A stretch of DNA of 64,000 nucleotides from Anolis carolinensis (lineage: Eukaryota): NCBI RefSeq assembly GCF_035594765.1, contig NC_085842.1, positions 91,054,782 to 91,118,781 on the forward strand. Direction: 5' to 3'. The notes beneath the pieces were generated by a model. The model was not told the DNA's origin, made no database searches, and saw nothing but the letters and a program-made list of their open reading frames with translations. This document shows, piece by piece, positions 3,129-52,555 of this stretch (position 1 is the first letter of the stretch; each line of letters starts with the position of its first letter). Position numbers and translations under genes: made by a program.

Positions 3129-4289
3129 CATGTCTATAATCACATTTGATGACAACAAGTCTGTCTCAACAGCTGGCCCTGCTGCACCTTTAATTTGAAT
3201 AAAGAATAGTCACCAGAAGAAGCCAGGATTCAGGTGCTAGTTTTGCCATTTGATTTGGTTGTGTATCTTTCTATTTCTAGTTAAGAATGACATCATACAG
3301 CAGTGCCATTAAGAAAAGGAAATTAAATTCACAGGAATATGTTTAAGTGAAAGAGACACATAAAATCATAAAAGCAGGGAAACTCTGAGGTAGATTTCCC
3401 AAAACCTTTATAACACCAAGCCCAATGTCTCAGTCAAGCTTGCTCCACCCACTTCCATTTTCCATTGCCAATGGGAATAAATGCGGGGGGGGGGGGGAGT
3501 TTAATGAAAAGGAAGCTTTATAAAAAGTAAATCATATTAACAACAACCACAACAAAAATAGCCCCACTGCTTGTATGGTTTCATTTAATGATGTTTAATT
3601 AAGAAAGAAAACTTTCTTTGCATGTGAGATTTGCAAAATATACTCTTTCACTTGATGATGTGTGTGTGAAGTAGATTTTTATGCTCCCCTGTGGACCAAT
3701 TAAAGCCCTATTGCATACAAAGGTGCTTGGTTAAGAACTCGCTGTATCAGTCTTGAGGCTCTATAGTCTTGCTACTGCATACAAAAAATAAACGGCCAGA
3801 TAGGGACATGAACTTTCCTGGCAGATTTAGGGCTGCTTGCCAGAGTTGTCATTTATTATCATTTTTGCTTGCCATGTCTCTTTTTTCAGTGCAGTTTCCA
3901 CAGAGTTTTAAAAATGTTTTCTGAAGGGGAAATGTCAAAAAATAAATGTTAATACTTAGAGATACTAGGACAATTCTATCTTATGTGCTTGAAGAAAAGT
4001 GACTTAACCTGAAGATATAGATTAATCTTCTAGTCTAGTGTTATAGGACCAACGTGCTTCTTACTATCTACAATGAAAGGATGAAGTTTAATGAAATGAA
4101 GTTGAATAAAAATGTATCTTCCATTTCCACATAGCACTGGACACGCTCAAAGCTAGTTTATCCAATGTTCAGGGTTTCTGTGCTTTGAACTCCCAAATAT
4201 CTCGAGGACCATAGCTAGAGGCCAACTGTTCTTTTGTGTATTGTGCATTTAGCACATTTTGTTTTGACACTGTTCATCAGGATGTAAAC

Positions 4290-5005
4290 TGTTCCGTCCC
4301 CCAGGACGATGGTTTGCCTTACCTATTGGTCGTTTGTTTGTTTCCCCTCCTTTACATTTTGTTTGAGCCTCTGGCTGCAAAAGCCTAGGAAAAGTGGCTT
4401 GGAATCTGCAAGAGCTGGCTGCAGTTTTCTTTGCAGTGATTGGTCAAAGAATGCAACATCTTAGGACCGCCCTTTTTACCAGGGTCTAGTCTCCATTTTG
4501 GAGCTTCATTCTGGCTATAGTCTTCCAACGTGCTGGAGCTGTGCAAGGCTAACTGGGACAAATCATCCTCAAAACCAGGCCAATCTAAGCCTATCCAAAT
4601 TAGATAAGTATTGAATTATATTGATCTGGAATAGGAAATCTAGTTAGAGGAGCAGGGTTATTCTGTCGCTTCTAGAACTAATCTTTGCTGTAAAGATAGG
4701 GAAGGAAAGAGTTTCTCCTTCTAATATAGGCAGCGTGATTAGGGTATAGTGGTTTTATAATCACCTTTGCTTTCTGGAACCAGGGATAATTCTGTACCTA
4801 AAACCTATAGAAATTTGTTTCATTTTCTGCAACTTTAAGATCTGTGCCAGGTTTACAACCTTGTATGAATAAACATCCTTTTTTGAAGTTATCCAGACTC
4901 AGTCGTTCAATATCTATAGGACAGCTTATAGGGATTTGCAGTTCGCCCGGATAAAGGACAGCACGTTTCAGTTTTATAGTTTTTTATTGTCCGGCGGACG
5001 GCACA
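4290..5005 (+). repeat. 5' LTR of the BEL/Pao element
   Basis: TGTTCCGTCC...GGACGGCACA imperfect terminal inverted repeats; AATAAA at 4868-4873; differs from the 3' LTR at only 2 positions (4515, 4965) by manual comparison. Confidence 0.97.
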
Positions 5006-5405
5006 GTTTTGAGGTAGATCAGCGGTTTTTCCGCTTGAGCTAGCTTGCACGGCTTATAGTTTTTTATAGTTTAGGAAGTTTAGTTTAGGCCGCGGCTTTT
5101 CCGCCTGAGCTCAGTCTGCATACCTAAAGACTCTACCAGCGTCTGAGGCAGTCAAATAGTGGGGCTCTATTTCCTTGCTATTTGGCTCGCGTGTGCGCAC
5201 GTGGCCCAGTGGCTTTCTGGGTTTGCACAGGCTGTGCAGTTCCCAGCAACGTCCAGGGCTCCCTCGGCGGTAGACCTCGAGCCGCGGAGCACCAGCGACA
5301 GTTCTTTGGCTGGCTCTGAGGCGTGAAGCCCACCAGAACCAGGCTAGAACCTGGACAGGCCTGGCAACGCTGCTGCGAGTTCGGCCGGAGCACTCGGCCG
5401 GCTTC

Positions 5406-5592
5406 GACCTGCCTCATCGTCCTGCGGTGGTGACCTGCCTCATCGTCCTGCGGTGGTGACCTGCCTCATCGCCTGGCGGTGGTGACCTGCCTCATCGTCC
5501 TGCGGTGGTGACCTGCCTCATCGTCCTGCGGTGGTGACCTGCCTCATCGTCCTGCGGTGGTGACCTGCTTCATCGTCCTGCGGTGGTGACCT
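5406..5592 (+). repeat. 26-bp tandem array (7 units plus a partial unit) in the element leader
   Basis: Unit GACCTGCCTCATCGTCCTGCGGTGGT starting at 5406, 5432, 5458, 5484, 5510, 5536, 5562. Confidence 0.95.
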
Positions 5593-5972
5593 CCCTTCAC
5601 AGCGGGGAGGAGGCGTCTTTTCTCTCCTCCTTTCCAAAGCCAGCCTCGGTGCTCCTTCGGCGGCAGGCCTCGAGCCGCAGAGCACGAGGTGCTTGAAAAT
5701 TTGGCGAAGTCGCCATTTTGGCAGTTTACGTCACTCGGGCAAGGGAGGTATCAAGTGGCAAGTTGCTGTCAGTTGGCATTTTGCAGCTTGCCCACTAAAA
5801 TCTGGCGCCAAAGGTCACAATCTTTGTAAAGTATAGTTACTTAGTGATATATATTGCTATGGTTAAGTGTTGTGCATTGTATTATATATTGCATTTGCTT
5901 TTATTGTAAATTTACTTGCTGGTATGTTGTATTTGCTTTTGTTGTAAATTTACTTGCTATTAAGAATACATA

Positions 5973-8900
5973 ATGTCTATGCAATTTCAAGATGATACAG
6001 ATGGTATACCTCCTTCTGAGGCTGAAAGTAGGAATGAAAGGCCCCAAAGGATAAAGCACCCTTCAGCCAAGATGCTAGCCCATCTAATAGATGAAAAGGA
6101 GCTCCTCCATGTGAGGTTAGGTTCGGCATGGGAGCGAATTGTAACATTGATGGACAGAATTGAGAGCTTGGGTATTACAAGGGTGCCATCCATATTACAG
6201 ACCGACCTTGAAGAGACCTTCGGTCTCTGGAGGGGTTTGGTGTCTAAGATAGTCCAGGTCCTCGAGCGCATTAACGCCAAGGATTCAGAGTTAGAAATAG
6301 TGAGTGTCTTAGCTGACACTAATGAGAAAGAAAATAAGGTGAGGGCAATTCTAGATGCCTTGGAATTTAGTTCTCCACCTGTTAATCTAAGGTCTGAGCC
6401 AAAAGGAAATCAGTCTTCCTTATGCAGCCATGAGACCAATCTTTTAAAATCACCTGCTGTGGCACTTAGTCTTAAGTCCAACCGCTCTAGCCAGGTATCT
6501 AAACTAAGGGAGTGTGCATCATCTAAACATAGCCACTCTAGCAAGTCTTCTGCTGCTGGGAGTGCCATCTCTTCCCTAGCTGCCTTGCACATTAAGGAGG
6601 CTGCACGTCTGGAGCTAAAGAGCAAGGTAGCGGGGGCGGAGGCTGATGCTAAGGCAGCTGATCTCACCCTTCCCTTTAAAGAAGAAGAGCAACGACTGCA
6701 AAGCAAAATGCAAATAGAACAGGCCCAAAGGCAATGTGAAATAGAAATGCTTAGAATAAAGATGGATGCCGCAGCCAAAAGGGTAAGGGCTGAGACTTTG
6801 GCCAAGGCCCTAATTGAGCCACTCACAGAAGAAAATGTAAGTCAGTTGCCGAAGCAGGACCCTTCTTCCAAGGTGCTTGTGCATCTTAATAGCTTAAACA
6901 GCCAGTTTTCGGATGAGGAACAGGAAGACTTCTCTCCTTACCCAGAGCAGGGCCCCAAAGTCACTTTTGAGTTTCCTGCAGAGCAGAGCGTCATAGCGGG
7001 GAGCTCACCCTTGCCCGAGCTACCTGTGCCTCCTGCTAAATCCCTAGGTCAGTCAATCAGGGCCTCAAGGCCAAGTGCTAGTTGGCCCTTACAGACAGCT
7101 GCACAGGGAGCCACCGATTCGTCAGTGGTCGATGTCATCCCTCCAAGAGGCCAAAGGTTGACGCAAGGTGCACGGTGGGAGTCCACTCCACAACAGCAAA
7201 CTCCTCAATTGTTCCCTTCGACGCCAGAGTCCCAGCTTGTCTCCATCATCAGAAGCCCCAGAAGAGATCTTAAGGACAAGGGTGTCGAAAAGTTTTCGGA
7301 CAAGCCTGAGGAATTTCTTCTCTGGAAGGCCACCTTCCAGAGAGCAATCAGAGACTTAAAGTTATTGCCTGAGGAAGAACTGACTCTTCTGGCTGCATGG
7401 TTGGGCCCAGCCTCATCCTCACAAGTTAAGAAGATCTACGCAGCCCACGTAGCCGATCCCGACAAAGCCCTGGAAAAGGCCTGGGCCAGGTTGCAGCAGA
7501 GGTATGGGGCCAGCACAGAGATTGAAGCATCTCTTATGGACAAGCTCCAAAGGTTCCCAGCTTTGAAACTCAAAGACTTCAAACTCTTGTGGGACCTCAG
7601 CGATCTCCTTACGGAATTAGAGTCGGCCAAGGAGAATCCAGAACTGCCCGGTTTGAAGTGCCTCGATCAGCACCTGTCCCAGAGGCAGATCTTGACCAAG
7701 CTGCCCTTCACTTTGCAAGAACGCTGGGGACAGGAGGTCTTCAACTACAAGGAGGCCCACTCCCAGGCATACCCTCCATTTTCTCATTTGGTCCAGTTCA
7801 TCACCAGGGCGGCCAGAGAAAGGAATGATCCGCAGACGGGCCTCCCCACCTTATACCAAGGGACCCATCCAGGGAAGGCATCTGAAGTGGACAAGAAACC
7901 ACCTAGAGAGGCCAATAGACCTGTCAGCGTAAAGGCAGTCGAAACTCAACACAAGACTGATGAACCCAGGTCGGAGGTAAAAGAGGTGCTCTGCCCCATT
8001 CACCAAAAGCCTCACAGTTTGGCCAACTGCCGGGAATTTGGCAAGAAGCCTTATAAAGAAAGACAACAGATTGTACAGAAGCTGGGCATATGTTTTAGGT
8101 GCTGTGGAGCAACTCTTCACTTTGCATCCAACTGCAAAGAGGACGTCAAATGCGCAAGGTGTAACAGCCTTAAGCATTGCACCGCGATGCACAACTCTGA
8201 CGCTGTCTCCCGCGCCAAAGGGGACACGTCTTCCAAAGAAGGGTCATCTACTGAAGCCACCAACATGCAGACCGCGTCACGGATGCAGGAGGATGCCCCA
8301 TCGGTCACCTGTACTGAACTATGCTCTGACGTGCACCAGTTCAGAGTCTGCCATCCCATCTGCCTAGCAGATGTATATCCAGCCAGAAGACCTTGGCTTA
8401 AAAAGAGACTTTACGTGGCTTTGGATTCACAAAGCGACGCCTCCCTGGCGACTCCAGAGTTTTTCCAACTGTTTGACATAAAAACCCAGACGGTCGACTA
8501 CACCATGTCCACCTGTGTAGGGAAGAAGAAGTTGCAGGGTCGCATAGCATCCGGCTTTGTTGTCTCCTCTTGTGACCAGAAGAGACTGTTCGAGTTACCA
8601 GACCTCATTGAGTGTTCCTCTATCCCTCGGAACAAAAAACAAATTGTAACTAGAGAAGTTGTGGAGGCTCATCCACATTTGCGACGATTAAAGAATGCCA
8701 TACCTGCTTTCCGTCCAGATGTGGACATTGCCCTTCTGCTTGGTGCGGACTGTCCGAACTTGTTCTATGTGAACGACCAAGTTAAGGGACCTCCAGGGGC
8801 GCCCATTGCTCAGCTGCTACCACTAGGCTGGACAGTTACAGGCCCAGTGTGCATAAACAAGATGCACCCACCATCGTCGTTGGACTCCAATCAAGCACAG

Positions 8901-10622
8901 GTGCTTAAAGGTGGACGTCCTACACTTGTGCGCAGTTGCCTAAGTCACATCTCAGTCTACTGCCAAGCAATAACTCCAGAGTATTCCTCCATTTTCAAAG
9001 TCTCTGAGAGAGACGAAGCCACAGCGCTCTCGAAAGATGAGCAAAGGTTTTCGGACATTATGAATGCTCAAGTCTCACGAAGTGCAGAGGTGAAAGCCTG
9101 CAAATCAACCACAGAAATCAAGATGGGCCAAAGATCTTGCCTGGAACCACACCGTTTTGAACGTTTTTCGGAGTGGCACAGTCTTCTTAGAGCAGTAGCT
9201 AGGCTTATACATCGTTTAGCTTGCAAAGATAGTGAGCCTTTACAGGTCCAGGATATGATAAAGGCTAAGAGCGTCATATTCAAGTCAGTGCAGAGATCTG
9301 CTTTCAAGCAGGAAATAGCTAGGCTAGAGCAAGGGCTCAACATCCCTAATCAAAGTCTTCTAAATGAGTTAAACCCATTTCTAGACAAGGAGGGTATTTT
9401 GAGAGTTGGAGGAAGGTTAGCCAAAGCTAAACTCAAGGCGTGCATAAAAAACCCCATCATCATACCCCCTAATAGTCACACTGCATTGCTGCTCGTTCGG
9501 CATCACCATGAAAGGATCCATCATCAGGGTAGAACTCTAACTGAGGCAGCCCTTAGAAATGAAGGTCTGTGGGTAGTTAATGCCAAAAGGTTGGTCAACA
9601 GTTGTATTTTCAAATGTGTCAAATGTCGGCGACTCAGACGAAACTGTCAAAGTCAGTTGATGGCAGAACTACCTCAGGATAGGACTTTGACAGACCCACC
9701 CTTTTCCCATGTGGGAATCGATGTGTTTGGTCCTTGGGAGGTTGTCACTAGGAAAACCAGGGGTGGTGTTGTAAATAACAAGAGGTGGGCAGTTTTGTTT
9801 ACTTGTTTAGTAATACGAGCTGTCCATATAGAAGTCATAGAAGGGATGGACACTTCATCATTTTTAAACGCATTAAAAAGGTTCATAGCCCTCAGAGGGC
9901 CAATTAAGTCAATTCGGTCGGACTGTGGCACCAATTTTGTAGGTGCGACCAAAGAACTCAATTGTGTGTCTAGGTTTGGGAGAGACCCAAAGGTTCAGAA
10001 CTTTACAAATACTGAACAAATTATGTGGACTTTCAATGTTCCTCACGCCTCCCATATGGGTGGTGTTTGGGAGAGGATGATTGGTATTAGTCGCAAAATC
10101 CTTAATGCCATGTTTTTGAGTCATAGGTCATTGACGCATGATGTTTTGGTGACACTTATGGCGGAAGTTACCGCAATTATCAACAACCGGCCGCTGGTTC
10201 CCCTTACCAGTGACCCTGAGAACTTACAACCACTGACTCCTGCACTTATTTTGACACAAAAGGTGCCAGGATGGAAGGACGTCATGTTGCCAGTTCCGGA
10301 CGGAACTCACCGTGCCCTGTGGAAACAGGTGCAGTCCTTGGCCAACCACTTTTGGAAAAGGTGGAAAGCTGAGTACTTAAGCCAGCTTCAAGCTAGAAGA
10401 ATCTGGCAAAGCCCACAGGACAACATTGAGGTTAACAACGTTGTGTTGTTAAAGGACAAAGACTTGCCCCGCCATGCGTGGCCCATGGGCATTGTATTAA
10501 AGACCTTTCCTTGCCCGGACGGTAAGGTCAGGAAAGTTCAATTAAAGACTTGCAACAGAGGCAAAGTGTCCATTTTGGACAGACCAATTAGTGACCTCGT
10601 GTTGCTTATTGGAGATGTTTAA
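5973..10622 (+). CDS. BEL/Pao Gag-protease-integrase polyprotein (1549 aa) lacking RT and RNase H
   Basis: Coiled-coil/capsid Gag; three Zn knuckles (CPIHQKPHSLANC, CFRCCGATLHFASNC, CARCNSLKHCTAMH); aspartic protease-like LDSQS and PLGWTVTGP; integrase HHCC (HERIHH...CVKC) and D-D-E (GIDVFGP, RSDCGTNF, GGVWERM); C-terminal FWKRWKAEYL. No YxDD or FSDAS-type motif. Confidence 0.93.
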   Translation: MSMQFQDDTDGIPPSEAESRNERPQRIKHPSAKMLAHLIDEKELLHVRLGSAWERIVTLMDRIESLGITRVPSILQTDLEETFGLWRGLVSKIVQVLERINAKDSELEIVSVLADTNEKENKVRAILDALEFSSPPVNLRSEPKGNQSSLCSHETNLLKSPAVALSLKSNRSSQVSKLRECASSKHSHSSKSSAAGSAISSLAALHIKEAARLELKSKVAGAEADAKAADLTLPFKEEEQRLQSKMQIEQAQRQCEIEMLRIKMDAAAKRVRAETLAKALIEPLTEENVSQLPKQDPSSKVLVHLNSLNSQFSDEEQEDFSPYPEQGPKVTFEFPAEQSVIAGSSPLPELPVPPAKSLGQSIRASRPSASWPLQTAAQGATDSSVVDVIPPRGQRLTQGARWESTPQQQTPQLFPSTPESQLVSIIRSPRRDLKDKGVEKFSDKPEEFLLWKATFQRAIRDLKLLPEEELTLLAAWLGPASSSQVKKIYAAHVADPDKALEKAWARLQQRYGASTEIEASLMDKLQRFPALKLKDFKLLWDLSDLLTELESAKENPELPGLKCLDQHLSQRQILTKLPFTLQERWGQEVFNYKEAHSQAYPPFSHLVQFITRAARERNDPQTGLPTLYQGTHPGKASEVDKKPPREANRPVSVKAVETQHKTDEPRSEVKEVLCPIHQKPHSLANCREFGKKPYKERQQIVQKLGICFRCCGATLHFASNCKEDVKCARCNSLKHCTAMHNSDAVSRAKGDTSSKEGSSTEATNMQTASRMQEDAPSVTCTELCSDVHQFRVCHPICLADVYPARRPWLKKRLYVALDSQSDASLATPEFFQLFDIKTQTVDYTMSTCVGKKKLQGRIASGFVVSSCDQKRLFELPDLIECSSIPRNKKQIVTREVVEAHPHLRRLKNAIPAFRPDVDIALLLGADCPNLFYVNDQVKGPPGAPIAQLLPLGWTVTGPVCINKMHPPSSLDSNQAQVLKGGRPTLVRSCLSHISVYCQAITPEYSSIFKVSERDEATALSKDEQRFSDIMNAQVSRSAEVKACKSTTEIKMGQRSCLEPHRFERFSEWHSLLRAVARLIHRLACKDSEPLQVQDMIKAKSVIFKSVQRSAFKQEIARLEQGLNIPNQSLLNELNPFLDKEGILRVGGRLAKAKLKACIKNPIIIPPNSHTALLLVRHHHERIHHQGRTLTEAALRNEGLWVVNAKRLVNSCIFKCVKCRRLRRNCQSQLMAELPQDRTLTDPPFSHVGIDVFGPWEVVTRKTRGGVVNNKRWAVLFTCLVIRAVHIEVIEGMDTSSFLNALKRFIALRGPIKSIRSDCGTNFVGATKELNCVSRFGRDPKVQNFTNTEQIMWTFNVPHASHMGGVWERMIGISRKILNAMFLSHRSLTHDVLVTLMAEVTAIINNRPLVPLTSDPENLQPLTPALILTQKVPGWKDVMLPVPDGTHRALWKQVQSLANHFWKRWKAEYLSQLQARRIWQSPQDNIEVNNVVLLKDKDLPRHAWPMGIVLKTFPCPDGKVRKVQLKTCNRGKVSILDRPISDLVLLIGDV

Positions 10623-10700
10623 AGTTCTAGTGTTTGTATTGTTGTGTATACAAAGGTGTTTGTATGTTTTTGATTGGTAAATTCCCACATCCTGGGAATT

Positions 10701-10710
10701 TAGCGGGGAG
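10701..10710 (+). other. Polypurine tract (plus-strand priming site)
   Basis: tagcggggag immediately 5' of the 3' LTR. Confidence 0.7.
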
Positions 10711-11426
10711 TGTTCCGTCCCCCAGGACGATGGTTTGCCTTACCTATTGGTCGTTTGTTTGTTTCCCCTCCTTTACATTTTGTTTGAGCCTCTGGCTGCA
10801 AAAGCCTAGGAAAAGTGGCTTGGAATCTGCAAGAGCTGGCTGCAGTTTTCTTTGCAGTGATTGGTCAAAGAATGCAACATCTTAGGACCGCCCTTTTTAC
10901 CAGGGTCTAGTCTCCATTTTGGAGCTTCATTCTGGGTATAGTCTTCCAACGTGCTGGAGCTGTGCAAGGCTAACTGGGACAAATCATCCTCAAAACCAGG
11001 CCAATCTAAGCCTATCCAAATTAGATAAGTATTGAATTATATTGATCTGGAATAGGAAATCTAGTTAGAGGAGCAGGGTTATTCTGTCGCTTCTAGAACT
11101 AATCTTTGCTGTAAAGATAGGGAAGGAAAGAGTTTCTCCTTCTAATATAGGCAGCGTGATTAGGGTATAGTGGTTTTATAATCACCTTTGCTTTCTGGAA
11201 CCAGGGATAATTCTGTACCTAAAACCTATAGAAATTTGTTTCATTTTCTGCAACTTTAAGATCTGTGCCAGGTTTACAACCTTGTATGAATAAACATCCT
11301 TTTTTGAAGTTATCCAGACTCAGTCGTTCAATATCTATAGGACAGCTTATAGGGATTTGCAGTTCGCCCGGATAAAGGACAGCACATTTCAGTTTTATAG
11401 TTTTTTATTGTCCGGCGGACGGCACA
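10711..11426 (+). repeat. 3' LTR of the BEL/Pao element
   Basis: 714/716 identical to 4290-5005 by manual comparison; followed by TSD TAAAC. Confidence 0.97.
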
Positions 11427-11800
11427 TAAACACTGGCTTAATTTGCAAGTTTGATTGCTGAAGCACATTAGCGCTCCCTTTGTGAAAGGAAAAGAAATAC
11501 ACATCTAATTTGACTTTCAATAATAGTGAAATTTGTAATGATTCTGCTTTGAGGACAATAAGACACTCAACATATGCTCATAGGGAACCCATTTCTCTTT
11601 ACAATTATTCCCCATTATGTTTAATAAAATGTTGCCTGACATGAAGAAGATGGGATGCCATTGTCTGCCATCGGTGCTTAAGTTGGGAAACTGCTTCTTT
11701 CCTTCCTTTTCTTGAGTAGACTGGAAGCTGTGTACCTCATTCATTTGTCTTCCAGCCCAAGAAAGTATATAGATCCACACATGTTTATGGTTAAAAAGAG

Positions 11801-12569: not shown

Positions 12570-14917
12570 GAATCAGGTGAAGCTCACCAGGTGCCAAGCC
12601 GATTTGGGCTCTCCCAAGAAGACTTATGGAACCTAGTAGGTTCCGGAATGCTCTGAAGGATCTGGAGCCTGTCAGCGACTCGATCGATGTGCAGGTGGAC
12701 ACATGGAACATCAGGCTGTCCCAATGCACTCGACGAGATCACCCCTAGATGCCCTCTCCAACTCCACCGGAATCGGTCTCCTTGGTTCACCGAGGAACTT
12801 CGATCGATGAAGCGGGAAAAGAGACGGCTAGAGGGCGTGTGGCGAGAACTTCATGACAGAGCTTCGAGATCAGCTTATAGGGCATTTATGGAGTCCTATG
12901 AGCATGCTATCATCGAAGCAAAGCGAGTATATTATGCCTCTTTGATAGCGTCCGCCAGCTCACGCCCGGCAAAATTGTTCAAAATAATTAGATCTTTAAC
13001 AACGATTCCTACTAACCCAAAAAGTGATGATCAGGCCCCTTCAGCCGAGGCTTTTCAAAGCTATTTTGCTGACAAGATATCACCGGGACCTCCCCGCCAC
13101 AATTGATACAATGAGAGAACTTGAGACTCCGTGGCCACTTGCTGGGCCCACCCTCAACCGGTTCATCCCACTGGACGCAGAGGCTTTCAATAGGCTCATA
13201 GCTGCAGCTAGACCGACCACTTTCTCCCTCGATCCGTGTCCCTCTTAGTTGGTTAAATCCTGCTTGGAGGGATTACGTGACCCTCTGTTGAAGATAATAA
13301 ACAGTTCTCTTGAGCAAGGAGTCTTTCCAGAGGGTTGAAAAGAGGCGATGGTCTCTTCCTTGCTGAAGAAACCAGATTTAGATCGTTCGGTTCCCTCCAG
13401 CTATCGCCCAGTTTCGAACCTCTTGTTCCTGGGCAAGGTGATTGAGAGGGCAGTAGCGGAGCAGTTGCAACAGTTCCTAGACGACACAGCCAGATTAGAT
13501 CCCTTCCAGTCCGGCTTTCGTGAGGGGCATGGGACAGAGACTGTACTGGTCTCCATCACGGATCATCTTCGCTGCCAGCTTGATCAGGGCGGGTCGGTGC
13601 TGCTCGTGTTATTGGACCTCACTGCAGCATTTGACACTGTCGATTATAATCTTTTGACCCACCGCCTTGCCATTGTTGGAGTCAGGGGGGCAGCTTTAAA
13701 TTGGCTGGCCTCCTTTCTTCACAACTGTGGACAGCGAGTGGAGAGGGGAGGCCTGGTCTCTGAAAGGTCCCCTCTACTTTGTGGGGTTCCTCAAGGGGCC
13801 ATTCTCTCCCCTCTGTTGTTTAACATCTATATGCGAACACTTGCTCAGCTGGTTCGAGGTTTCGGGCTCAAGTGCTACCAGTACGCTGATGACACTCAGC
13901 TTATGTTGAAGATGGAAGGCCGACCGGACTCTGTACCCGATAACTTTCATCAATGCCTCGAGGCTGTTACTGGATGGCTGCGTGCCAGCAGGTTGAGGGT
14001 GAATCCAGCAAAGACGGAGATCCTATGGCTGGGTCGACCGGGCAGTGGGGATATCCAGTTGCCTACCCTGGATGGCGAGGCGCTATGCCCGTCATCACTG
14101 GTAAAGAGTCTGGGAGTCCTTTTGGACCCTCTGCTGACGATGGAAGCCCAGGTCTCCGCCATTAGCCTTCTTTCACCTGCGGCAGGCTAGATGGCTGGCC
14201 CCCTATCTGTCAAGGGATGACCTAGCTACAGTGATCCAGGCCACGGTCATCTCAAGACTGGACTACTGTAATGCCCTCTACATTGGCCTTCCTTTGTCGG
14301 TGATCCGGAAGTTCAAGTTGGTACAAAATGCAGTTGCTCGACTTCTTGCGGGAGTCCCGATGAGATGTCATATAACACCAATCTTACTACAGCTGCACTG
14401 GTTACCAACTGAGCACCGGATTACTTTCAAAGTGATGGTGCTTACCTTTAAGGCCTTACATGGTCTAGGAACAATGTACCTGAGGGACCGCCTCACCCCC
14501 TACCAACCCCAGAGATCCCTCTGCTCTGAGGACCAAGATCTATTGGAAGTTCCCAGTTTTAAGACCTTGCGTCTAACAGCAACTAGACGTAGAGCTTTTA
14601 CATCAGTGGCGCCATCACTCTGGAACACTCTGCCGCCTGAAGTTCATGCCTGGCGGGACTTATCAGTCTTCCGCAGGTCATGTAAGACACACCTGTTTCG
14701 GCAGGCTTTTGATCTCAGTTATTGCTGTTTTTAAATTGCTTAGATTTTAGCTTGTTTTTGTAAGCCACTCTGAGCCCTGGGGGAGTGTTTTAAGATGTTT
14801 TTTTAAAAGATATTTTAAAGATGTTTTTAAATTGTTAGATTTTAGCCTTTCTTGTAAGCCTTTCTGAGCCCTAGGGCAGTGGCGACATATAAGTTTAAAT
14901 AATAAATAAATAAATAA
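12570..14917 (+). mobile_element. 5'-truncated L2-clade LINE with a disrupted RT ORF
   Basis: Non-LTR RT motifs SPWFTEEL, YRPVSNL, FQSGFR, LDLTAAFDTV, GVPQGAILSP, YADDTQL; stop at 13246-13248 plus frameshifts; (TAAA)n tail. The 5' boundary is approximate. Confidence 0.9.
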
Positions 14918-50083: not shown

Positions 50084-51339
50084 AGTACGTTAGTTGATCT
50101 TCCCTTCCTTTTTTTAGTTTGTTTTTCCTTTGTCATGTCCACATGTGCAAAATCATCACTAATAGCAGCAACATTTGTGTGGGTTCAGCACAGACTGGTT
50201 TGCATATGATGGGCTATCATTCAATATAGATGGCACATTGTGCATTTATTTAAAGTTCTCCCTGTTTTTACCTTATGTGACATTAATGCCTTAAGAATAA
50301 TACACTGCATGTAAACTAATTTATTATGCAAAGTGTGCCCTCTTCAATTGTTGGCGAACTTCACTTCTGCATCATCCCATAGATTTTCACTGATGTCTTT
50401 CCTTTTCTCTACTGTGTTAGTTCACATTTAGAGCGATTGCATGAATATAATTTTTTAGTTTATATGTGTGTCTATGTACCAGCCTTCAGCATTCAGTGAA
50501 TTCAAGGGAGCCCATGCCAGGAGTCCTCAAAGGGTCACATCTCAAAGGGTCATACTGTTATTTCATTCCACTTTTCCAGTCTCATTGGGGCAACCCTTAA
50601 GTCAGGAGAGCATCGTGGTGTCCCAGTATTCCTAGATGGTAAACTTTTCTCCAAAAGGGAGCAGTGAGACAAAGATCTGAACCATAATAGCACATTGCTC
50701 GTTAACTCCTTATAGCAGAAAAGGATTTATCCCAGGTAACTGGAAGAATTCATCTTCTGTAATATAGTTGAATTGTTATTCTCTATGCTATACTTTAGCA
50801 AGAACTATCTTGGAAAATGAAAAAGTTAGGATCTATACTAGGCCTGTGCATTTGATGAAAAAAAAATGTTTCAATACTCATTACAAAATTAGGAGACGCC
50901 GGTGAGTTGTTTCTGAAGTGTTTCTACAATATCATACGTGTCCATTTTGTTACTATAACAAGAGTAACAAATTAGTTTTTACTATTTCGTTAAGTAATTG
51001 CACAGAGGGAACTTCCGGGGCTCCTTTGCACTCATTATTAGAGCTATTGGTGTGAAACTTGCTACAATGGTAGAACATATTTACCACTGTTAGCCACCAA
51101 GTTTCGGAACATTTCACTCATCTATTGATTTTTGGGGATTTTAAAAGGTTTTTTTTTTACAAACACTTTTTTAAAACAAAGTACAAGAGCTATGTTCTTG
51201 AATTTCTCTACAATTATATAACATAACCAGGGCATCATTCCACCCAAGTCGGTTGTGGTAACTAATGCTGTCTCAAACAACTTTTTGTGTGAGTTGTGGC
51301 AACCAACACACACAAAATAGGCTGGCAGTAGCCCTAGGA

Positions 51340-51474
51340 CAGTGGTTCTCAACCAGAGGGTCCCCAGATGTTTTGGCCTACAACTCCCAGAAATTCCAGC
51401 CAGTTTACCAGCTGCTTGGATTTCTGGGAGTTTAAGGCCAAAACATCTGGGGACCCACAGGTTGAGAACCACTG
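51340..51474. mobile_element. 135-bp palindromic hAT (Charlie-type) MITE
   Basis: CAGTGGTTCTCAACC...GGTTGAGAACCACTG TIRs and an internal palindrome. Confidence 0.88.
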
Positions 51475-51569
51475 CACTAAAAGACAGTGATACCCAGTGA
51501 TACAAGTGTTTTGTTTGCTTGCTTGGTGCTGTAGCAGGAGGTGCATGATGTAATGGATAGCAGTTAAAT

Positions 51570-52555
51570 GCCGCAGGGCTCCGTCCTGGGCCCGGTTCTG
51601 TTCAACATCTTTATTAACGACTTAGACGAAGGGTTAGAAGGCACGATCATCAAGTTTGCAGATGACACCAAACTCGGAGGGATAGCTAACACTCCAGAAG
51701 ACAGGAGCAGAATTCAAAACGATCTTGACAGACTAGAGAGATGGGCCGAAACTAACAAAATGAAGTTCAACAGGGACAAATGCAAGATACTTCACTTCGG
51801 CAGAAAAAATGGAAATCAAAGATACAGAATGGGGGACGCCTGGCTTGACAGCAGTGTGTGCGAAAAAGATCTTGGAGTCCTCGTGGACAACAAGTTAAAC
51901 ATGAGCCTACAATGTGATGCGGCAGCTAAAAAAGCCAATGGGATTTTGGCCTGCATCAATAGGGGAATAACGTCTAGATCCAGGGAAGTCATGCTCCCCC
52001 TCTATTCTGCCTTGGTCAGACCACACCTGGAATACTGTGTCCAGTTTTGGGCACCGCAGATGAAGGGAGATGCTGACAAGCTGGAAAGCGTCCAGAGGAG
52101 GGCAACTAAAATGATTAAGGGTCTGGAGAACAAGCCCTATGAGGAGAGGCTTAAAGAGCTGGGCATGTTTAGCCTGCAGAAGAGAAGGCTGAGAGGAGAC
52201 ATGATAGCCATGTACAAATATGTGAGGGGAAGTCATAGGGAGGAGGGAGCAAGCTTATTTTCTGCTGCCCTGCAGACTAGGACACGGAACAATGGCTTCA
52301 AACTACAGGAAAGGAGATTCCACCTGAACATCAGGAAGAACTTCCTCACTGTGAGGGCTGTTCGGCAGTGGAACTCTCTCCCCCGGGCCGTGGTGGAGGC
52401 TCCTTCTTTGGAGGCTTTTAAGCAGAGGCTGGATGGCCATCTGTCGGGGGTGCTTTGAATGCGATTTCCTGCTTCTTAGCGGGGGGTTGGACTAGATGGC
52501 CCTTGAGGTCTCTTCCAACTCTACTATTCTATGATTCTATGATTCTATGATTCTA
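51570..52555 (+). mobile_element. 5'-truncated young CR1 LINE (open ORF2 C-terminal part, ~296 aa)
   Basis: [24 protein letters not shown] and RRLRGDMI motifs; (ATTCTATG)n tail; possible TSD TAAAT. Confidence 0.95.

Follow-up and report, generated by a model that had tools for sequence, protein, structure and literature searches.

An LTR retrotransposon of Anolis carolinensis probably starts its own reverse transcription with a piece of its own transcript. We put at about 0.85 the probability that the element family primes itself in the manner of Tf1, given a primer site that is complementary to the element's own LTR. This pairing is kept with different letters across families, so that a piece of the element's own RNA likely starts DNA copying.

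A nonautonomous BEL/Pao-type element

The element occupies positions 4290-11426 of the window, i.e. of the whole 64,000-nucleotide stretch of DNA that was analysed. Its LTRs (4290-5005 and 10711-11426) are 716 bp each, with 2 differences between them, and its features are as follows:

4285..4289, + strand: left copy of the 5-bp target-site duplication TAAAC (from the sequence)
4290..5005, + strand: 5' LTR, 716 bp, TG...CA (from LTR comparison)
4562..4564, + strand: ATC, distal 3-nt partner of 5017-5019, probably left over from occasional longer primers
4565..4575, + strand: predicted self-primer, with putative start and cut; 4567-4575 is perfectly paired with the primer site
4868..4873, + strand: AATAAA, likely polyadenylation signal, with the R/U5 border just 3' of it
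4941..4999, + strand: predicted U5 stem just 5' of the LTR end (4941-4953 with 4988-4999; folding prediction)
5006..5014, + strand: primer-binding site core GTTTTGAGG, with no TGG start, abutting the LTR
5015..5016, + strand: hypervariable dinucleotide just past the helix (from copy comparison)
5017..5019, + strand: distal GAT, complementary to 4562-4564
5406..5596, + strand: 26-bp tandem array in the 5' untranslated leader
5964..10622, + strand: single open frame of 1552 aa with Gag (DUF1759) and integrase (rve, DUF5641) (from domain search)
10702..10710, + strand: polypurine tract, abutting the 3' LTR
10711..11426, + strand: 3' LTR
11427..11431, + strand: right copy of the target-site duplication

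Compared with a longer natural copy, the window element has lost about 1.66 kb internally near 9085-9095, and with it reverse transcriptase (RT) and RNase H. It is therefore a nonautonomous copy of a BEL/Pao-type family, hereafter family A. In a domain search, a full-length copy of the family matches PF05380 (E 7e-44), RVT_1, rve, DUF1759, and DUF5641, and thus combines the BEL/Pao traits of a Pao-type RT/RNase H, an integrase, and one gag-pol frame. The LTR length of 716 bp and the tract at 10702-10710 also match the BEL/Pao LTR size (0.2–1.2 kb) and polypurine tract of about 10 nt, and the joint between polypurine tract and 3' LTR (GGGGAG or GAGGAG, then TGT) is also found in relatives. Among the closest homologues (41–46% identity) are proteins of fish, amphibians, molluscs, and ticks that have the same domains, and the named homologues among the 120 matches listed come mostly from these groups.

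We find 870 family A 5' LTR junctions in the 1.85-Gb genome, and a count made with slightly different flanks gives 864 with the exact 9-mer of the primer site; this is a young and large family, at present expanding in a vertebrate. Many genome copies lack RT/RNase H while their Gag-integrase frame of about 1550 aa is still open, and a second deleted class of about 1810–1830 aa recurs. Nonautonomous classes with frames kept open appear to spread widely. Elsewhere in the window, 13339-14734 and 51122-52458 match RVT_1 in fragments and likely belong to non-LTR elements.

The primer site pairs with the element's own LTR

Directly 3' of the 5' LTR, positions 5006-5019 read GTTTTGAGGTAGAT. A mature tRNA ends in CCA, which requires TGG at the primer site, and the absence of TGG remarked on in the initial annotation is confirmed. 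That annotation also described 5006-5014 as the exact reverse complement of 4567-4575, and rightly so, the next-best site in the LTR matching at 7 of 9 positions. Its extended pairing of 12/14 with 4562-4575 likewise holds, as does its claim that the pairing ends at the LTR boundary: C4576 is unable to pair with A5005, so the helix stops at the LTR border. A match of this length had been estimated to arise by chance about 0.3% of the time, and dinucleotide shuffles of the LTR agree (12/5000, or 0.24%). The TATA-like word noted at 4516-4519 exists, but it was dropped as support for a transcription start: it lies about 50 nt before 4565-4567, which is too far upstream for a canonical TATA box.

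When the leader is folded, the base pairs of the 9-bp helix have probabilities of 0.98–1.0 for four assumed starts, and the fold of 4565-5030 is better than that of any of 100 shuffles (z −3.8). Most pairs of the U5 stem (4941-4953 with 4988-4999) are predicted at P 0.7–1.0, with two bulge-side pairs at 0.35 and 0.67. With G-U pairs allowed, the primer site also has 10-nt runs at LTR positions 215 and 552, which the folding ensemble does not use. A second candidate primer (4795-4804) was rejected, as its pairing requires a bulge and its sequence differs between copies, in contrast to the constant site.

Among the first 100 of the 870 junctions, all on one contig, 5006-5014 is invariant (100/100). 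In L025 (= L054), the last base of the primer is changed from C to T, which leaves a G-U pair, and the primer site carries more changes. A search for copies truncated at the predicted start or the predicted cut gave 0 matches. In a single case from another family of this genome (L180, family B), the 5' LTR starts roughly 12 nt downstream of the predicted cut.

No host tRNA match to the site in a partial set

Against host tRNAs, which the initial annotation had named as what could overturn its reading, the best match to the site is 5 nt in a partial set of 38 distinct genes with 22 anticodons, Arg-TCG and Gly-GCC included. The 18-nt site for tRNA-Arg or tRNA-Gly that is a BEL/Pao trait is also absent, judged by the lack of TGG and by this partial set. 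By its sequence, the element is of BEL/Pao type and departs from the ICTV profile in its primer site. An Rfam search of 4200-6000 returned no family near its cut-off.

These results bear on the possibility that a tRNA half or another small host RNA binds the site and that the match to the LTR is secondary. Half-tRNA priming is known in Ty1/copia elements (in the available text of PMC6317226), ICTV assigns a tRNA primer to the family (PMC8742986), and the 22 anticodons form an incomplete set. Against this stand the 5-nt ceiling among the 38 genes, the Rfam result, and the finding that primer sites differ in five families of one host and each time match the LTR of their own family, a pattern that no single host RNA can account for. 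We therefore regard priming by a host RNA as very improbable.

Covariation among families of the same genome

Compensatory covariation of the two segments across related families, which the initial annotation had put forward as a check, is found: in five families or subfamilies of this genome, and at 15 of the 20 testable loci outside it, the site pairs with its own LTR using different letters. Besides family A, the genome holds B, C1 (L226), C2, and C3 (L028), all with different primer sites. The best Watson–Crick run to the own LTR is 9 nt in A, 10 in B, 11 in C1, 15 in C3, and 10 in C2, and all 20 cross pairs with the LTRs of other families give 4–8 nt. Shuffles reproduce the own-LTR match in 12/5000, 5/5000, 0/3000, 4/3000, and 3/3000 cases for the five families. 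Folding gives helix probabilities of 0.73–1.0 across all five and predicts a U5 stem beside the primer duplex in A, B, C2, and C3, with a shorter one in C1.

Family B shares 48% protein identity with A. Its primer site, GTGAATTTCT, has its complement at LTR positions 172-181, and the 10-mer is present in 49 of the 51 junctions among those listed. In C2, 9–11 nt of pairing is found in 16 of 16 complete LTRs (19 loci sampled, of which 2 without a junction and 1 with a cut LTR were excluded). The C2 (L234) and C3 (L028) LTRs can be aligned at 68%, and two paired positions have changed on both strands of the helix, which by sequence amounts to two compensatory changes.

Three further observations concern these families. 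In family B (L151-L181), the primer site is tandemly repeated 1–13 times, with variable tails, within 400 bases of the end of the 5' LTR; repeated copying and slippage during plus-strand transfer may account for this. A CAAATTAGAT-like word is common to A (4596-4605) and B (L031, around LTR position 203), about 20 nt past the predicted cut; the two LTRs are otherwise unalignable and the E-value of the word is not significant, and it is possibly a downstream promoter element. In C2 (L227-L245), a short tandem array lies right after the predicted cut, and its variable length makes the LTR vary from 622 to 771 bp.

A hypervariable dinucleotide lies just past the helix

Across 54 distinct aligned copies of family A, positions 5015-5016 show 7 states, compared with at most 4 at each of the other 775 adjacent pairs. 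Among the first 100 of the 870 junctions, all on one contig, they take 9 states: by hand count of these 100, TA occurs 49 times, AC 25, TC 18, and CA 3, with GA, GC, TT, AA, and AT once each. Variants at 5015 and 5016 recur in 4 of 4 sequencing runs (contigs), and none is listed at 5006-5014 or 4562-4575. Families B and C2 are also variable at the first bases past their own helices.

Such a hotspot is as expected if a primer of 9–11 nt is copied and untemplated bases are added. The perfectly complementary state, AT, occurs in only 1 of the 100 junctions, which makes routine copying of a full 11-nt primer unlikely and leaves the 5' end of the primer uncertain. The hotspot would offer a genome-only readout of primer length. 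Perfect long complements are rare (14 nt in L016, 15 nt in L028, and 20 nt in L151), and distal pairing past the hotspot is kept in all five families.

The latter two observations favour a variant of the self-priming reading, not exclusive of it, in which the primer acts in trans from another LTR transcript (a dimer partner or a solo LTR) or forms the 3' portion of a longer leader whose start lies far upstream of 4562; the TATA-like word at 4516 would place such a start near 4545. This variant seems unlikely to us, since a hotspot right after position 9-10 fits a short primer and folding favours intramolecular pairing (P 0.98 or more).

Relatives in other hosts point to a possible spliced primer

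Sequence scans yielded 64 metagenome loci and 5 GTDB loci as outside relatives, and a scan of IMG/VR yielded none. Fifty of these 69 loci were screened for LTRs and 28 were re-examined for partial LTRs, leaving 20 in which the LTR end could be read and part of the LTR sequence was present, while the rest were too short or without ends. None of the 20 primer sites begins with TGG, and all 20 begin with GT. Among the loci are animal BEL/Pao elements on contigs binned as Sedimenticola and Endozoicomonas genomes (L146-L149), which most likely reflect host contamination of bacterial bins.

Pairing of 11–13 nt appears in 11 of the 20 only across a predicted GT(A/G)AG...pyrimidine-AG joint inside the LTR, with predicted introns of 76–727 nt; the joint of L149 was found by hand, the blind filter having missed it. 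Four loci, from 3 families, have contiguous pairing of 11–13 nt with G-U allowed. As for the remaining 5, L085 is too short, L088 has the acceptor half only, L091 needs a bulge, and L101 and L110 show no match. In the first 7 families with a 7–9-nt run, the run starts at the very base that follows a pyrimidine tract plus AG, while the adjoining bases of the primer site pair with those preceding an upstream GT(A/G)AG donor. For family A itself, a splice-built primer was rejected: the LTR has no GT(A/G)AG donor, and the only genomic place with AG before the 3' part of the primer is unrelated DNA. Contigs assembled from 8 sequencing runs contained no joint within the LTR in those runs presumed to be RNA, a result that speaks neither for nor against splicing.

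With fixed primers, own-family runs are 9–13 nt, whereas those between families have a mean of 4.6 and are as long as 9 in 10 of 240 comparisons. When sites are chosen blindly and G-U is allowed, runs reach 11 in 10 of 15 own pairs vs 12 of 210 cross pairs, so that single cases are not decisive. A chance match could draw on the 0.24% probability of a 9-mer in 716 bp combined with a scan that reads many elements, but the pairing is repeated independently in four more families here and at 15 loci elsewhere. The cross-family matrices rule chance out, and we give it next to no weight.

Across 16 families, each of helix positions 3–11 shows at least 3 pair types. The helix starts at the first base after the LTR in 16/16 and is not extendable into the LTR in 15/16, which is the geometry that a primer would need in order to define the LTR end. 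This geometry, together with a hotspot just past the helix, argues against the pairing being real but structural (serving packaging, dimer formation, or translation control) with some other primer in use, such as a protein, the end of a U5 hairpin, or random RNA. A structural role would be consistent with the U5 stem predicted beside the site in four of five families; overall, we consider it improbable.

A CA lies 10–13 nt upstream of the predicted cut in 13 of 16 families, sister families included, against a background of 0.25 and in an interval picked post hoc; the count is 0 of 3 in the C families. As an initiator, this position would give a first exon of 3–7 nt. L120 has an intron-less LTR of 235 bp, in which the surroundings of the primer look like the spliced joint of L095, its neighbour on the tree. 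In a quick tree (SH-aLRT only, long outgroup, C families left out), A and B are sisters (SH-aLRT 99) within a group containing spliced families. As A and B are nested among spliced families, intron loss is the simpler reading, and the tree suggests such a loss in the window lineage; the splice-built primer is likely ancestral.

A model of self-priming

We propose that transcription by RNA polymerase II begins at 4565-4567 or slightly upstream, as indirect signs suggest, and that the first 9–11 bases of the RNA (4565/4567-4575) fold onto 5006-5014, as predicted by folding. By analogy with Tf1, RT/RNase H supplied in trans by an intact copy would cut after 4575, and the released 4565/4567-4575 segment would serve as minus-strand primer in place of a tRNA. 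RT would then extend the new 3' end into U5; a cut after 4575 followed by extension into U5 would place the DNA end exactly at the LTR border. A primer of 9–10 nt would usually be copied into the plus strand with 1–2 untemplated bases added, and these extra bases would become fixed at 5015-5016 during plus-strand transfer, while a longer primer may occasionally reset the site. The primer segment would be rebuilt each cycle from the 3' LTR.

In the intron-bearing relatives, the primer would exist only once a cap-proximal intron has been spliced, and survival of the intron would require an unspliced 3' LTR copy; the window lineage presumably lost its LTR intron. This leads to a broader picture that we lean towards. 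A wide aquatic and vertebrate BEL/Pao clade would have dropped tRNA priming and would have the host spliceosome build its primer, joining a first exon of about 3–7 bases to an exon immediately 5' of the poly(A) signal into a primer of 11–13 nt. Only the cap-proximal LTR copy would be spliced, and the unspliced 3' copy would pass the intron on. The families found here and a few others would have lost the intron and become plain self-primers, with the primer end recorded as a mutation hotspot.

If true, BEL/Pao would be the third LTR superfamily with self-priming, after Ty3/gypsy, where it is described, and some Ty1/copia elements, where it is predicted. A splice-assembled primer would also link the initiation of reverse transcription to splicing by the host and account for the retention of an intron inside an LTR. 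A self-primer site would likewise explain why tRNA-based LTR finders miss the primer sites of these elements, and such a site, being independent of tRNA, would probably evade silencing by 3' tRNA fragments, an idea drawn from the available text of PMC7472051.

Comparison with known systems

The ICTV profile of Belpaoviridae gives an 18-nt primer site that pairs with the 3' end of tRNA-Arg or tRNA-Gly from the host (PMC8742986). Family A resembles this group in its LTRs, polypurine tract, single gag-pol frame, Pao RT/RNase H, and integrase; unlike the profile, the window clade has no such site, which, if self-priming is true, contradicts the ICTV statement of host tRNA use in BEL/Pao. The words tRNA and PBS are absent from the main text of the Sinbad paper (PMC554778), and the host range fits Sinbad-like elements as a lead only. 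PMC3118150 reports its largest BEL/Pao family in the green anole, and the words PBS and primer are absent from its main text. We found no paper on BEL/Pao self-priming or on a splice-built primer, although subscription journals, Repbase reports, and supplements may mention them; the available text of PMC3601003, PMC13524379, PMC6934838, and PMC8220671 holds no case of BEL/Pao self-priming.

Self-primers are predicted for Tcn1 and for the TAR/Houba/Osr-1 copia elements in the available text of PMC6317226, whose 10-bp threshold exceeds the 9-bp duplex of family A. As here, self-priming was inferred for these elements from complementarity between LTR and primer site. Unlike the BEL/Pao element, they are plant elements of other superfamilies, and that text mentions no splice-built primer for them.

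Within BEL/Pao, Cer7 of Caenorhabditis elegans reportedly encodes a tRNA-like primer RNA. Family A would resemble it as a BEL/Pao element that possibly supplies its own primer; unlike the separate tRNA-like RNA reported for Cer7, the primer here would be a piece of the LTR transcript.

The closest parallel is the Tf1/sushi group. The Tf1 primer is 11 nt long, and a further stem lies in U5 beside the primer duplex; unlike in Tf1, the perfect duplex here is shorter (9 bp). The available text of PMC4600332 and PMC5341516 describes self-priming in Tf1, Tf2, Tj1, and the Tf1/sushi group, and family A likewise has a primer site complementary to a segment of its own LTR and no tRNA site, as known here from sequence alone. 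According to the available text of PMC11042837, roughly half of Tf1 cDNA contains a copied primer site and untemplated bases are added by RT; the hotspot suggests that the same happens here. Unlike the Tf1/sushi elements, which are Ty3/gypsy chromoviruses, family A has a Pao-type RT/RNase H (PF05380), and a chromodomain sought in the full-length copy gave no match. A further difference is that the partner of the primer site arises in most testable relatives of the window family only after predicted splicing. As far as its sequence indicates, the element works like the Tf1/sushi group and is not a member of it.
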